Shown here: piece by piece, positions 1,508 to 6,002 of the stretch
Numbering within the stretch: position 1 is the first letter of the stretch
How the letters are laid out: the number at the start of each line of letters is the position of its first letter
DNA from: a virus
Strand: one strand, 5' to 3'
UHGV virus genome: UHGV-1769846
DNA: 15,384 nt
The notes under the pieces: model-generated
Databases searched by the model: none
What the model was told of the DNA's origin: nothing
The model's input: the letters and a program-made list of their open reading frames with translations, nothing else
Made by a program: the position numbers and the translations under genes

Positions 1508-1565
1508 AAGATAGCAAAGTGAGTATATCTAGTCAAAATTTTTTTGCATACACTTTGCTATCAAA
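1508..1565. promoter_or_regulatory. Divergent immI control region (Pant-like promoter and candidate Arc/Mnt operators)
   Basis: Minus-strand promoter TTGACT (plus 1531-1536), 17-bp spacer, TATCTT (plus 1508-1513), upstream of arc. Inverted repeat arms ATAGCAAAGTG (1511-1521) and CACTTTGCTAT (1551-1561) flank a 29-bp AT-rich core. The plus-strand mnt promoter is not cleanly resolved. Confidence 0.5.
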
Positions 1566-1585
1566 TTGAATACCAAAGGTGTTAT

Positions 1586-1834
1586 ATGGCAAAGGGTGTG
1601 TCAATTTCTCCAACTACGGTAAGAATCCCTGAATCTTTACGCGAGGCTCTTGCTGTCAGAGCATCAAAAAATGGTCGCTCTGTTAACTCCGAGATCGTCA
1701 TGATTTTGCAAGCCGCGATTGATGAAGATAGGTCGCCAAAGTCAGTTGAGTCATTTGCTCAGCAAGAAGCTGATAAATTCAAAGAGGCGCTACTTGAGAC
1801 GCTAAAGACCATGTATGCTAAGGATGAAAAATAA
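1586..1834 (+). CDS. mnt: Mnt-like ribbon-helix-helix repressor (82 aa)
   Basis: Translation MAKGVSISPTTVRIPESLREALAVRASKNGRSVNSEIVMILQAAI...FKEALLETLKTMYAK resembles P22 Mnt in both the RHH region and the C-terminal helix. ATG at 1586 is preceded by AGGTG; the track's TTG start at 1544 is rejected. Confidence 0.8.
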   Translation: MAKGVSISPTTVRIPESLREALAVRASKNGRSVNSEIVMILQAAIDEDRSPKSVESFAQQEADKFKEALLETLKTMYAKDEK

Positions 1835-2370
1835 TGCTGCACACAATTCATTTCTTATGCCCTGTTAACACTGCCACTGTTGGGCAACTTCAGAACCACT
1901 GTCTCACCGCATTATCTCAAGGCGCAACTGAATTAAATATCCATATATCAAGTCAGGGAGGGGAAACTGCTGCTGGCTTTACTGCGTATAACTTTCTTAA
2001 GTCACTCCCTGTTACCGTTAGAACTCACAACATAAGCAATGTTGAATCCATAGCTAATATCGTTTTCCTGGCTGGCTCAGAACGTTTCGCAAACCCATTA
2101 TCAAGATTCCTGTTACATCCTCTATTATGGTGCTTTGCCTCCCCAGCCGCCGACCATGCCAGATTGAGAGAGTACGGGAAATGCCTCGATAACGATCTTG
2201 ATCGCTTCGTTGAGACGTTCAATATCGACATCGGAACCCATATTAGGTGGGCATCCCTGATAGCAGACTCGACCATTTTGGATGCTAACAAGGCTCTTGA
2301 GCATGGCATAATTAATTCCATAAAAACTGCAAGGCTGGCATCCAATCAGGCAAACTGGTGGGTTGTTTGA
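1834..2370 (+). CDS. ClpP-like (S14-type) serine peptidase homolog, 178 aa
   Basis: Start overlaps the mnt stop (TAATG). Sequence NIHISSQGGETAAGFTAYNFLKSLPVTVRTHNISNVESIANIVFLAGSERFANPLSRFLLHPLL parallels the ClpP core (YINSPGG...AG..IYD...V.T.C.GQAASMG..LL.AG....R...P.SRVMIHQP). Candidate triad Ser72, His95, Asp145. Confidence 0.7.
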   Translation: MLHTIHFLCPVNTATVGQLQNHCLTALSQGATELNIHISSQGGETAAGFTAYNFLKSLPVTVRTHNISNVESIANIVFLAGSERFANPLSRFLLHPLLWCFASPAADHARLREYGKCLDNDLDRFVETFNIDIGTHIRWASLIADSTILDANKALEHGIINSIKTARLASNQANWWVV

Positions 2371-2394
2371 TGGGTAAATCATGATTACTCCTTA

Positions 2395-2420
2395 TAAAAA
2401 ACCCACCTGACGGTGGGTTT
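2395..2420. terminator. Bidirectional rho-independent terminator between convergent operons
   Basis: Stem CCCACC (2402-2407), loop TGAC, GGTGGG (2412-2417). Flanked by an A-run (2395-2401), giving a U-run for the minus transcript, and TTT on the plus side. Confidence 0.65.
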
Positions 2421-2868
2421 AGTCAAACATAGTGTTTCTAAAGTCTCTCGCATACCCTGCTAACACTCTCATTCTATTATGATTGTTAGCAGACATGTGA
2501 GCTACAGGATGAAAAAGAGCAATCAATGAATACCTGTTCTCATCAAAAAGATTTTGTGCATAAACGAGAGCGGTATTGGATGTTTTATGCCACTGCAACT
2601 TTTGCGGTGTGCTGATATCTGTGCCATTTTTTATTGGCTCAAATTTATTTTCACCAATTGCTAAATGAAGGTGCATAAGGCCTGCATCTTCAATATCAGG
2701 AGGTCGATGATAAGAGGTGTCTCTGCCAAAATAGCTGGGCAACGTTCCCGTAGACTTGTAGATGATAAAATCATCTACAAGTGTTTGTTTTAAATCAGGA
2801 AACTCAACAAAAACCGGGGAGAAAAAATAGTCAAAACTATCCTGATTATATTCCACGGTTACTTGCAT
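2419..2868 (-). CDS. YafO-family toxin-like protein (149 aa)
   Basis: Motifs DDFIIYKSTGTLPSYFGRD, HLHLA, ALVYAQNLFDE, LIALFHP and NNHNRM line up with E. coli YafO as recalled (FISYKRDGVLPDIFGRD, HIHLA, HLVYCQGAFDE, LIAILKP, NNQMH). GAGGT sits 5 nt upstream of the ATG, and the start is 8 nt after the upstream gene's stop. Confidence 0.7.
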   Translation of the reverse strand: MQVTVEYNQDSFDYFFSPVFVEFPDLKQTLVDDFIIYKSTGTLPSYFGRDTSYHRPPDIEDAGLMHLHLAIGENKFEPIKNGTDISTPQKLQWHKTSNTALVYAQNLFDENRYSLIALFHPVAHMSANNHNRMRVLAGYARDFRNTMFD

Positions 2869-2876
2869 GTTTTACC

Positions 2877-3443
2877 TCAGTGGAAGTTACCAGAGTGAAA
2901 CACACGAGTCCCGTGCTCAGCAAGCGCACGCAAACCAGCCATATCTACGGAACTATCAAAAACAACCGGAACACATGAGCGTTGTTTAATAAGACTATTC
3001 AGGTTGGTTACGGCAGATCTGGCATCAGCAACAACGATATAGATATCTCTTGCGATCTCTTTAAAATCAGCAGAAGCTTCTTTGAATACCGATTTCATTG
3101 CCCCTTCAAGTCCTCTCAATTGATGCTCTATCAATCGAGACTTTTCTGGTTCAATGATAGACAACACATTGTCTACATTCTCATCGGTAGCGTTTGCAAG
3201 AACACGATAAGCGTATTTCAGCATTCGAGACAATTCTTTAATCGAAGACACCGCCTCATGAAGCTCATCATTAGCCCGTTCACTGCTGAATGAGGATTGA
3301 TGGTAAGCGTGCTGAACGTTATCAGTAACAACCACCTCACAACTGAACGCAGAAGCTTGCTGTAATAGCAAACCTATTGCGACTCCAGCTTTGGCAGCGT
3401 TCAAGCTAAACATTTCATCAATCCCATTAGTCTCATTGCTCAT
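2877..3443 (-). CDS. Hypothetical protein (188 aa), upstream partner of the YafO-like gene; no recognisable family
   Basis: ATG at 3443 with a strong AAGGAGG Shine-Dalgarno 5 nt upstream; the track's TTG at 3473 is rejected. Predicted largely helical, with no DNA-binding antitoxin fold that I recognise. Confidence 0.65.
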   Translation of the reverse strand: MSNETNGIDEMFSLNAAKAGVAIGLLLQQASAFSCEVVVTDNVQHAYHQSSFSSERANDELHEAVSSIKELSRMLKYAYRVLANATDENVDNVLSIIEPEKSRLIEHQLRGLEGAMKSVFKEASADFKEIARDIYIVVADARSAVTNLNSLIKQRSCVPVVFDSSVDMAGLRALAEHGTRVFHSGNFH

Positions 3444-3510
3444 ACAAACCTCCTTCTTATCGGAGATTATCAATAGCTATGCATCCATTGAATACACGCT
3501 ATGCGCAATA

Positions 3511-3539
3511 AGTTTACGTCACGTGATATCATTATGCAA
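3511..3539 (-). promoter_or_regulatory. Sigma70-like promoter with palindromic operator candidates for the 188-aa/YafO-like operon
   Basis: Minus strand TTGCAT (plus 3534-3539), 17-bp spacer, TAAACT (plus 3511-3516). The spacer holds overlapping palindromes TCACGTGA (3519-3526) and TGATATCA (3524-3531). Confidence 0.5.
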
Positions 3540-3618
3540 CCACCGTTCTATCACCGACTAACTTTACTCCCACTCCTATACATCATCTGGTATCCTGCGC
3601 AAAACTAAGGAGGTTGGT

Positions 3619-3969
3619 GTGAATGCTCAGTCTGTCATCATGGTTTTCCTTGGGCTGATTGTCGCAAAACTATATCCAGACTGGTGGAAAGGGGCATTAG
3701 CTACTGTCGCCATCTATTTGCTTTTATCCATCGTTAAGCGATCACTCGCTGAGACCGTAAATCAAGCAAAACGTTTCTCATTTAAGAGTTTAATAAACTA
3801 TGTTACTGGGCTTATTTTTTGCCTTTCAATTCTGATCGCTTCGGCTTTTTTGCCCGTATCAATAGCTAATTTTTTTGGCGCACCATATGAGGTAGGTTAT
3901 CTATTCTCTGTTTCCTGTCTTGCCATTGCTCTTCTTTACCTGTGGACGAGATCAAAGAATAAAAATTAG
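3619..3969 (+). CDS. Small integral membrane protein (116 aa, about 4 predicted TM helices); possible superinfection-exclusion type moron
   Basis: GTG start at 3619 with a near-perfect TAAGGAGGT 5 nt upstream. Four hydrophobic segments and a basic C-terminal tail (RSKNKN). Convergent with gene 16. Confidence 0.65.
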   Translation: MNAQSVIMVFLGLIVAKLYPDWWKGALATVAIYLLLSIVKRSLAETVNQAKRFSFKSLINYVTGLIFCLSILIASAFLPVSIANFFGAPYEVGYLFSVSCLAIALLYLWTRSKNKN

Positions 3970-3986: not shown

Positions 3987-6002
3987 TTATTGAGCTTCTT
4001 TTTGTGATGCCTGTGCGACTCTGGTGAGCGATTGTGTGACCGTACTGATCGCTATGTCATATGCTGTGCTACCTTTTGGCGTATTTGCCAGACGTAACAA
4101 GGCATTTCGTATAACAGGGCTTTCGTATGCCTTCGCAGCTCCTCCTACGACACCAGCAGCAGGAACAACAAACGCAGCCGTTTTTAGCATCCCCGCTAAT
4201 ACTGCTGCGTTTATGATGCCACCACCAACTAACAATCCATAAAGCTGCTGACCATTTAAGTTTTGAACGTTCGCTTTTGCCGCGTGTCTTGTATCGTTGA
4301 GGTATTTAATAACGCCGTCCAGTTCCTTTCCATGTACGCCTTTAAAGAAAGTTGCTGATTGCTTCCTGTTCCGGTGTAACGCATTAATAAACTTTTCAAC
4401 ACTAATATTTCCAGACGGATCAGTCGCCTTATCTACAGCATTCTGAACTATGGCTGCTCGTGCGTTTTGCCTACCATTGTCATCCAGAAGCCTGTAAAGC
4501 TGAGAACGTTCTGATGGGTTTTGGCTAAAAACGAGTTTTGTTACATCCTCAGGTGTAGCCTTGCCGCTGGCTATTGCCTTTTGAACGCGCGTTCTTCCCA
4601 TCATGTCATTGAATCTAGCCCATGAGCGATCAACCCTAGACATATTGGCAGCTTCTTCTGAGCCTAGTTTTTGGGATACTGCTTTTTTCATATCCGCTGT
4701 ATATGCCTTGTAGACAATATCGCTGGCTTTCTGGAGCGTGTCTTTATCAACAGTCTCGTTTGAATTCATGAACCGCTTTCGAAGGTCAGTTCTGTTTTCT
4801 CTCGCCAGACGCAGGTCATTGGGTCCGCTGGTGATATCGTCTTTAAATTGCTGCAAGACTTTTACCGCGGCTCTATCCTGAGATTTGCCCGGGCGGCTTA
4901 ACACGGCAATCTGATTGTCGATAGCTTTTACCGTGTTTGAGAGATCGACAGGGGTATCCCCCATAGCGTCAATTATGCGGTTATATCGCTTTCCTGCTGC
5001 CTCAATGAATTTTTGTTGCCCTTTAGTCGCAGATTCATAAAGCTGTTTATCAGAAATGCCACCCAGACCATCGCTAAATGTTCTGACTAAATTTTCTCGT
5101 GCTTGTTGTTGATTCAGCCGATTCTTACCGGTTCCAAAAAAAGGAACTCTTTCGCCTAATGTCTGAGCCTGACTCTGCATAAAGGTTTTATCTTTCAGCG
5201 TGTCACTGGTCATTAACGGCAGGTTTCTTTCCGACGCAAAATCGACAGCAGCCTTTGCTTCCGGTGACATCTCACCGCGAACAGCCCTGGAAACCGCACT
5301 AACTGTATTTTCCAGCCCCTTGCCAACACCACCAATGCCAGCAGAAATTACCGTTTGTGCAGGATCAATATCTTCTCCGCCAGCAAGGCTGGTGCCACCC
5401 TGTAGTGCTAAATCTGTAGCAGCTGATTTCCCTATGGCACCAAGCACCGTTCCAGCCCTGCCCGCTGGTGTGAACGCTAACGCATTAGCAAGAAACGAAG
5501 TCAGGTCTTGCGGTGATAAACCTGGCTTGTTCAGGGCATAATCACCGGATGGCAGGGAAACGATAGTGTTACCCTTCTCATCCTGCCTTAATTTCGCCCC
5601 CATACTCTGAAGAATCTTTTCCTGAGACGCGTCGGAGCCGAAAAGTTGAGACCATCCAGCCTTCAGGGCATCCATGCTTAGTGAGTTCAACTCAGGGGCA
5701 GCCCCAACATTTTGCAGTCTCTCCATTTCTGGTGTCATTCGGCTTTCACCGGTAACGGCATCGCGCATTGCAGCACCTAAAACAGCCCCTTGCTCAGCAG
5801 AGCGATCTAGTCCTTCCTTCTGCTGAGTGGCAAGCTGTGCATATCCTGATGCAAGTGAGTTGTCTGCTGGCGATTGCTGAACACCTTGTTGTGTTGGCGC
5901 TGACTGACCAGCAAAATACTCATCAATGGCGGACCCAATATCTTCCGTGCTCGTACCATCAGGAAAGGTAAATGTCTTACCATTTGCAGTTACTTTCATC
6001 AT
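3987..6002 (-). CDS. Ejection (injection) protein, P22 gp16 homolog (671 aa)
   Basis: Last gene of the gp7-gp20-gp16 trio by synteny. ATGA start/stop overlap with the upstream gene at 5999-6002. Large Ala/Gly-rich protein. Confidence 0.8.

Follow-up and report, generated by a model that had tools for sequence, protein, structure and literature searches.

Organization of the cassette

The window analysed here is the whole 15,384-nt stretch of the virus genome UHGV-1769846. Its minus strand carries a compact cassette of two genes, the first encoding a 188-residue protein (hereafter the partner) and the second a 149-residue protein of the YafO toxin family. By its sequence, the cassette is a conserved prophage toxin-partner moron that moves as a unit, with its own candidate promoter, a coupled gene pair and a terminator. 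Its elements, in the direction of transcription, are:

3511-3539, minus strand: candidate sigma-70 promoter of the pair, with -35 TTGCAT (3539-3534), a 17-nt spacer and -10 TAAACT (3516-3511)
3449-3455, minus strand: Shine-Dalgarno sequence AAGGAGG, 5 nt before the partner ATG
2877-3443, minus strand: partner gene, an open reading frame of 188 codons with its ATG at 3443
3339-3389, minus strand: partner residues 19-35 (AGVAIGLLLQQASAFSC), hydrophobic and signal-peptide-like, followed by a poorly conserved linker
2880-2933, minus strand: conserved C-terminal tail of the partner, L..LA.HGT..F.SG.FH, ending at the last residue (from alignments and the conservation profile)
2869-2878, minus strand: junction, with GAGG (2878-2875) over the TGA stop of the partner and an 8-nt gap (2876-2869) before the toxin ATG
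2419-2868, minus strand: toxin gene, 149 aa, YafO family, phrog_1651
2396-2420, minus strand: intrinsic terminator that starts inside the toxin stop codon, with a 9-bp stem (AAACCCACC/GGUGGGUUU), the loop GUCA and a U-run (U6)

Both reading frames, and the 8-nt gap with the Shine-Dalgarno motif GAGG embedded at the first stop, are found where the original prediction from this DNA had placed them. The geometry of the junction suggests translational coupling of the partner and toxin genes, and an identical 8-nt junction (TGAGGTGAAGGATG) is present in phage HK639. The terminator had been called strong, and its hairpin at the end of the toxin gene indeed folds at -14.9 kcal/mol (z = -3.26). The record of phage Emek annotates a terminator beneath its match to the 2396-2420 stretch; in comparisons with Emek and phiv205-1, the terminator is the left recombination boundary of the cassette. 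A hidden third gene for an antitoxin is ruled out: the sole other minus-strand frame upstream of the partner encodes 20 aa. No LexA-box-like site was found near the pair with one mismatch allowed, and Rfam gave no meaningful match.

A divergent YafO-family toxin

The 149-residue protein matches the Pfam family YafO_toxin (PF13957) over profile positions 3-101 of 101, with 78.9 bits against a cut-off of 25 (E = 3.4e-22); the hidden Markov model search thus bears out its description as a YafO-like toxin. It falls short of the NCBIfam equivalog NF007377/PRK09885 (79 bits for a cut-off of 153) and is 38% identical to K-12 YafO over 120 residues. Judged by these comparisons, it is a genuine but divergent member of the YafO family, belonging to a distinct phage clade and not an orthologue of K-12 YafO.

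Residues H66, H68, Y103, E110 and Y113 and a P-x-A-H motif are retained across eight toxins of 33-61% mutual identity. This is compatible with the published placement of YafO among the 13 BECR-fold families of the RelE/ParE superfamily (PMC11980606). The AlphaFold2 model of the toxin is of low confidence, with a predicted local distance difference test (pLDDT) score of 52; its six best structural neighbours are toxins: HigB1, HigB2, RelE3, HigB, YafQ and a toxin of H. pylori. PADLOC-DB v2.0.0 holds no match for the toxin.

A partner family unrelated to YafN

The upstream gene encodes a dedicated, co-evolving partner of a helical family, which replaces the usual YafN (Phd/YefM) antitoxin. The protein hits phrog_8416, of unknown function, at 2.2e-96; sequence and profile searches of Pfam, NCBIfam, PADLOC and PDB gave nothing significant. 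AlphaFold2 predicts an all-helical bundle (pLDDT 70), whose structural neighbours are generic. The protein had been described as helical and unrelated to the usual Phd/YefM-type antitoxin: the model agrees on the first point, and the remote-homology and structure searches yielded no significant family. Nor is it of the Phd/YefM type, as already proposed: aligned with YafN, the family profile reaches an hhalign probability of 0.3%, and there is no Phd/YefM hit in Pfam. No DNA-binding domain was detected in 23 members of the family.

Word-indexed protein searches reached close relatives only. Searched with a profile, 1.84 billion representative proteins yielded just 24 clusters, in which all named members are annotated 'hypothetical protein', with hosts that include Escherichia, Salmonella, Enterobacter, Proteus, Providencia and P. 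aeruginosa. Three weak matches are judged to be noise: the helical tail of ZorA (PADLOC, 14 bits), LTXXQ (in one family member only) and DUF745 (Pfam).

The antitoxin idea for the partner already exists, as an annotation label. Two GenBank phage records, PhiR40_1 and PhiR55_1, name a homologue 'YafM antitoxin'. The K-12 gene once called yafM encodes a repetitive extragenic palindromic (REP)-associated transposase and is unrelated to this phage 'YafM'. RefSeq, through its Prokaryotic Genome Annotation Pipeline (PGAP), names every copy of the partner 'hypothetical protein', and a Pectobacterium pangenome paper lists 'YafO/YafM'. No published characterisation of the family was found in the literature searched, which excluded the likely source paper of the PhiR phages. 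The pair had been presented as undescribed; this stands as far as characterisation goes, but not for the antitoxin label, already in use in the two phage records and the Pectobacterium paper.

YafO toxins of prophages have been reported as orphan 'toxins alone' (PMC10449497). The P. aeruginosa phage vB_PaeS-D14L, listed with a partnerless YafO, carries the partner at 99.4% identity. In a survey of E. coli toxin-antitoxin systems, YafO toxins had 13 partner clusters, with 8% known antitoxins (PMC10790755).

The pair is conserved across phages and hosts

In phage HK639, the pair lies between the tape-measure and minor-tail genes, with identities of 38% for the partner and 59% for the toxin. Six partner homologues, only 19-34% identical to the protein in the window, are each directly followed by a PF13957 gene. 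A toxin-based scan of IMG/VR gave 125 viral contigs. Where upstream DNA was present, a partner-family gene stood directly upstream of the toxin in 78/78 loci, with gaps of -4 to +16 nt except at one locus, where the toxin is frameshifted; a further 13 IMG/VR loci end at the contig edge and are outside this count.

The same arrangement was found in thirteen of thirteen further loci: nine from species-representative genomes, which include Buttiauxella, Serratia, Pluralibacter, Pseudomonas putida and an Orbaceae bacterium, three from Salmonella-type P22-like prophages and one from a second E. coli type. Both SSU5-like phage-plasmid loci have it as well. In total, the partner precedes the toxin in 93/93 further loci, at a distance of -4 to +21 nt bar the one frameshifted locus, which argues that the adjacency is not due to chance. 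The survey put forward in the original prediction therefore places the pair far beyond P22-like phages, in hosts that include Escherichia, Salmonella, Enterobacter, Proteus and Pseudomonas.

The places that the pair takes in phages are of at least five kinds: the immI region of P22-like phages; the space between tail genes; the place directly after a cI-type repressor gene, in P. aeruginosa-type prophage contigs; the prophage end adjoining dusA; and phage-plasmids. Among complete E. coli genomes, 55 of 5,426 (about 1%) carry it at 99.5% identity or more, and four others have a 70%-identical version. These carriers include the extraintestinal pathogenic strains APEC O1 and S88.

The most divergent pairs occur on SSU5-like phage-plasmids of Klebsiella and E. 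coli (loci L112, 868-1905, and L113, 883-1911), with a toxin about 32% identical. Their partners are 202-205 aa long and keep the RGLEG core, without the signal-like N-terminus and the ...FH tail.

Divergence and decay of the two genes

In each of the 231 pairwise comparisons among 22 representative pairs, identity is lower for the partner than for the toxin, with means of 27% vs 49%. The identities of the two proteins correlate (r = 0.74; partner identity 19-100%). The faster divergence of the partner resembles the way in which antitoxins evolve.

Only two disrupted cassettes were seen, in E. coli SF-088 and in one IMG/VR contig; in both, the toxin is frameshifted and the partner intact. In neither the 55 E. 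coli genomes nor the other loci did we encounter the reverse decay, an intact toxin next to a broken partner. Within its 5' part, the toxin gene contains runs of T6, C4 and T5 at 2813-2828 (codons 14-19), and the 1-nt indels of both frameshifted copies fall there. The frameshifts could reflect real inactivation, slippage-prone switching or sequencing error.

Control elements upstream of the pair

We aligned five P22-type cassettes, namely the one in the window and four sisters, with partner identities of 54-100%. The hexamers TTGCA(T/G) and TA(A/G/C)ACT are kept, 17 nt apart, and the spacer between them is variable. The TTGCAT/TAAACT promoter is plausible, even though a consensus promoter scan made no call upstream of the pair (the -35 element matches the consensus at 3/6 positions). 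Conservation also extends to GGTGATAGAAC on the upstream side, to CATAGCGT on the downstream side and to the site where ribosomes would bind for the divergent gene. At the ribosome-binding site of the partner, GGAGGTT is invariant and AAGGAGG is retained in 4/5 sister cassettes.

Overlapping palindromes in the promoter spacer had been taken as the mark of an autoregulated operator. The palindromes exist, GATATC at 3530-3525 and TCACGTGA at 3526-3519, as read from the sequence; the repeat finder reported no inverted repeat. Both are missing in the four sister cassettes, which retain the -35 and -10 elements, and autoregulation is thus unsupported. The spacer palindromes are most likely a product of chance, and nothing backs an autoregulatory operator.

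Two further features were noticed. The GGTGATAGAAC block (3548-3558, minus strand), just upstream of the -35 element, has 10/11 positions invariant across the five P22-type cassettes and could serve as a regulator site or belong to the promoter from which the divergent gene for the membrane protein is read. HK639-type cassettes (loci L002, 4900-4960, L026, L027 and L004) have a terminator-like hairpin, GCCGAAG...CTTCGGCC, with a T-run right before the ribosome-binding site of the partner, and a conserved TTGCTC-N17-TATTAA-like element about 70 nt upstream of it. The cassette in the window has no such hairpin, which might act as an attenuator or form a small leader RNA.

A signal-peptide-like N-terminus

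The partner N-terminus was assessed with a crude home-made check of the n-h-c layout and the (-3,-1) rule, not with SignalP, calibrated on two annotated K-12 regions. Among partner representatives 21/22 pass, and among the toxins 0/22; in the controls, 11/12 exported and 4/66 cytoplasmic K-12 proteins do so. A typical partner has a short, often basic start, a hydrophobic core of 9-14 residues and, in many cases, a proline ahead of a small-x-small site. Examples of putative cleavage are MNPFNAITFAALCGPLAQPAAMA before Q and MNLSLRNCLAVVLFGGVLSVPSFSA before G; by eye, outside the test, the Orbaceae partner has a similar N-terminus, with MAYSLVNTAIIAALFAFSSQA before N. The AlphaFold2 model shows a helix at residues 16-35 and then a low-confidence stretch at 36-53.

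The signal-like layout is kept across subfamilies. Since it survives between subfamilies whose N-termini do not align, their sequences suggest that this layout is under selection. Cores of 9-14 residues are signal-peptide-like and probably too short to span the membrane. In hydrophobicity, the partners score 2.0-2.8, a range that overlaps with the 2.04-2.39 of the four cytoplasmic proteins that pass falsely. In the subfamily of the window, a net acidic segment precedes the core, and a GLL(M/L)QQ motif is more conserved than is usual in signal peptides. The SSU5-like phage-plasmid branch lacks the signal-like segment, with the core domain (RGLEG region) and the toxin pairing retained, which is compatible with a cytoplasmic function of the partner. 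A lipoprotein reading of AFSC in the window partner was set aside: the residue before the cysteine is P, H or N in close relatives.

Genomic setting

The window corresponds in sequence to a P22-like prophage found in E. coli. A query of positions 2300-3700 (1,401 nt) is 100% identical in APEC O1, S88, ATCC 11775 and others; in APEC O1, the prophage adjoins a tRNA-Arg gene and intS. The neighbours of the cassette, by local gene order, are:

3987-6002, minus strand: gene for a gp16-like ejection protein
3619-3969, plus strand: gene for a multi-span membrane protein of 116 aa (109 aa in RefSeq)
1544-2370, plus strand: ClpP-like gene and Arc/Mnt-like gene

Beyond the ClpP-like and Arc/Mnt-like genes follow arc, ant and the tailspike gene; the late genes lie on the minus strand. 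The corresponding order in P22 is 16 - sieA - non-coding gap - orf59a/mnt - arc/ant - 9. The pair had been assigned to the sieA slot of P22. Its location in the immI region (gene 16 to mnt) holds, but by the P22 gene order the pair lies beside the sieA slot, between that slot and the end of the mnt operon. In phage phiv205-1, the flank is the same as far as the terminator of the cassette, and different genes then fill the slot; from this, the cassette behaves like a moron that can be exchanged.

Here, the gene for the 116-aa membrane protein has the place and the orientation that sieA has in P22; the protein shows no similarity to SieA and no match in PHROG, Pfam or PADLOC. Sister prophages have other small genes at its place, one of them with a Rap1a domain, and share the ribosome-binding region of the membrane-protein gene (CCAACCTCCTTAGTTTT, minus strand). 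On the other side, the ClpP-like serine protease gene is stand-alone and encodes 178 aa (Pfam CLP_protease, 2.2e-11), overlapping the stop of the Arc/Mnt-like repressor gene by 1 nt; in P22, orf59a takes this position. The arrangement recurs in phiv205-1, and EC.P3 and E212 share its 3' end. A protease would here be co-transcribed with a repressor of lysogeny control.

Interpretation of the module

We propose a toxin-antitoxin or abortive-infection reading, in which the partner restrains the YafO-family toxin and release of the toxin blocks translation; we give it a probability of about 0.5. Both genes would be expressed in the lysogen, where the 149-residue protein would act as an active mRNA endoribonuclease toxin held in check by the partner, most simply by binding. 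If the partner does bind the toxin, the pair would work as a type II-like toxin-antitoxin module. Infection or stress would release the toxin and shut down translation, with exclusion of superinfecting phages (abortive infection), stabilisation of the prophage, or both, as the outcome. As in type II modules generally, two small co-directional genes form one operon and one of them belongs to a known toxin family; no antitoxin was found that has a DNA-binding domain and controls its own operon through a palindromic operator. Speaking for this reading are the obligate pairing, the mobility of the cassette as one unit, the antitoxin-like divergence of the partner, the lack of another antitoxin candidate, the frameshifts seen in toxins only, the phage-plasmid branch without a signal-like segment and the antitoxin label given by annotators. 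For neutralisation itself the support is indirect and comes from the faster evolution of the partner and the toxin-only frameshifts.

Several points weigh against this proposal. Binding of the toxin by the partner, and toxicity itself, are what we infer from sequence. The Sec-signal-like N-terminus is present in 21/22 partner representatives and, if functional, would be expected to remove most of the partner from the compartment of the toxin. Co-divergence is expected for any two adjacent genes that are inherited together. The frameshifts of the two toxins fall within homopolymer runs, where sequencing errors are a possible cause. Finally, neither protein has a meaningful match to a PADLOC defence model.

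The signal-like segment can be accommodated in two ways. The partner may be exported to the periplasm, or associated with the envelope, and linked to the cytoplasmic RNase other than by classical sequestration. It could then be a superinfection-exclusion factor or an envelope sensor, within a two-layer operon of exclusion and abortive infection or a sensor-effector pair. The signal test and its controls speak for export, together with the layout kept despite unalignable N-termini, the similar Orbaceae N-terminus, the short cores, the predicted N-terminal helix with its low-confidence linker, and a location that prophages use for exclusion genes acting on the envelope, for example sieA. However, the test is home-made and the partner scores overlap those of cytoplasmic false positives; the window subfamily has its acidic leader and an unusually conserved GLL(M/L)QQ, and the phage-plasmid branch is paired with the toxin without the segment. 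Export would, moreover, leave an active YafO homologue with no neutraliser in the cell, and we hold it to be possible but somewhat doubtful. Less likely still is a partner that is an antitoxin-like controller with a functional Sec-type signal, tying control of a cytoplasmic RelE-superfamily toxin to export or export chaperones. Its pre-protein could neutralise the toxin while being continually drained by secretion; or its stability could depend on host SecB or SecA, which would make the pair a two-gene analogue of toxin-antitoxin-chaperone (TAC) systems. Whichever of the two applied, the toxin would be set free by a phage that interferes with translation, with the Sec pathway or with the envelope.

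The two remaining explanations leave the signal-like segment aside. The pair could be an addiction module that stabilises prophages or phage-plasmids, with no role against other phages, and classical type II biology fits such a function. It occurs on SSU5-like phage-plasmids, where maintenance matters, and has copies at prophage ends beside the attachment site. Most copies, however, lie in integrated prophages at exclusion positions expressed in the lysogen (after the repressor, in immI or among tail-region morons), and integrated prophages presumably have little need for post-segregational killing; we regard pure addiction as improbable. That the two genes are unrelated adjacent morons, or an ordinary yafN-yafO copy, is very improbable. 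Morons do pile up side by side in this slot, but an accidental neighbourhood is hard to reconcile with co-occurrence in 93/93 loci, over the whole range of partner identities among the 22 pairs, the remoter phage-plasmid members and five kinds of position, or with the coupled 8-nt junction conserved in HK639. An ordinary yafN-yafO copy is effectively refuted by the absence of YafN similarity, a LexA box and a dinB context.

Altogether, one whole phage-borne clade of YafO toxins has a single dedicated partner family, undescribed in any domain database. If the partner is an antitoxin, it would represent a new antitoxin fold, and the pair a probable prophage defence module missed by current defence-finding tools. 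If it is truly exported, it would reveal a new principle for the control of a cytoplasmic RNase toxin. The question of export decides the mechanism.

Comparison with known systems

One of the closest known systems is the type II toxin-antitoxin system K-12 YafN-YafO (dinB-yafNOP), with a homologous toxin, the same partner-then-toxin order and a very short gap. YafN is a 97-aa protein of the Phd/YefM type, whereas the window partner is an unrelated helical protein of 188 aa; the cassette is phage-borne, without a LexA box, a dinB context or a detected DNA-binding domain. The BECR-fold modules HigBA, RelBE and DinJ-YafQ of the RelE/ParE superfamily resemble it through the structural neighbours of the toxin model (pLDDT 52), but none of the folds typical of antitoxins (ribbon-helix-helix, helix-turn-helix, Phd or AbrB) is seen in the partner.

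In the TAC system (HigB-HigA-SecB-like chaperone), the toxin is of the RelE superfamily, and the stability of its antitoxin hinges on recognition of the export-chaperone type (PMC11980606). The likeness of TAC to the cassette is conceptual only, through the export-signal-like segment of the partner. The cassette has two genes only, with no gene for a SecB-like chaperone between promoter and terminator, and its signal-like segment is N-terminal, in contrast to the C-terminal chaperone-addiction tail of TAC.

P22 sieA and lambda rexAB are comparable by position, as accessory genes expressed in the lysogen with their own promoter and terminator. SieA has no sequence relationship to either protein (phrog_7745 vs phrog_8416 and phrog_1651), and Rex is likened by position only. 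A further counterpart is the 'YafM antitoxin / YafO toxin' pair of PhiR40_1 and PhiR55_1: the 'YafM' of PhiR40_1 belongs to the partner family with an hhalign probability of 99.8%, and a toxin of the YafO clade follows this homologue after 16 nt (PV340560.1, 222-1212).

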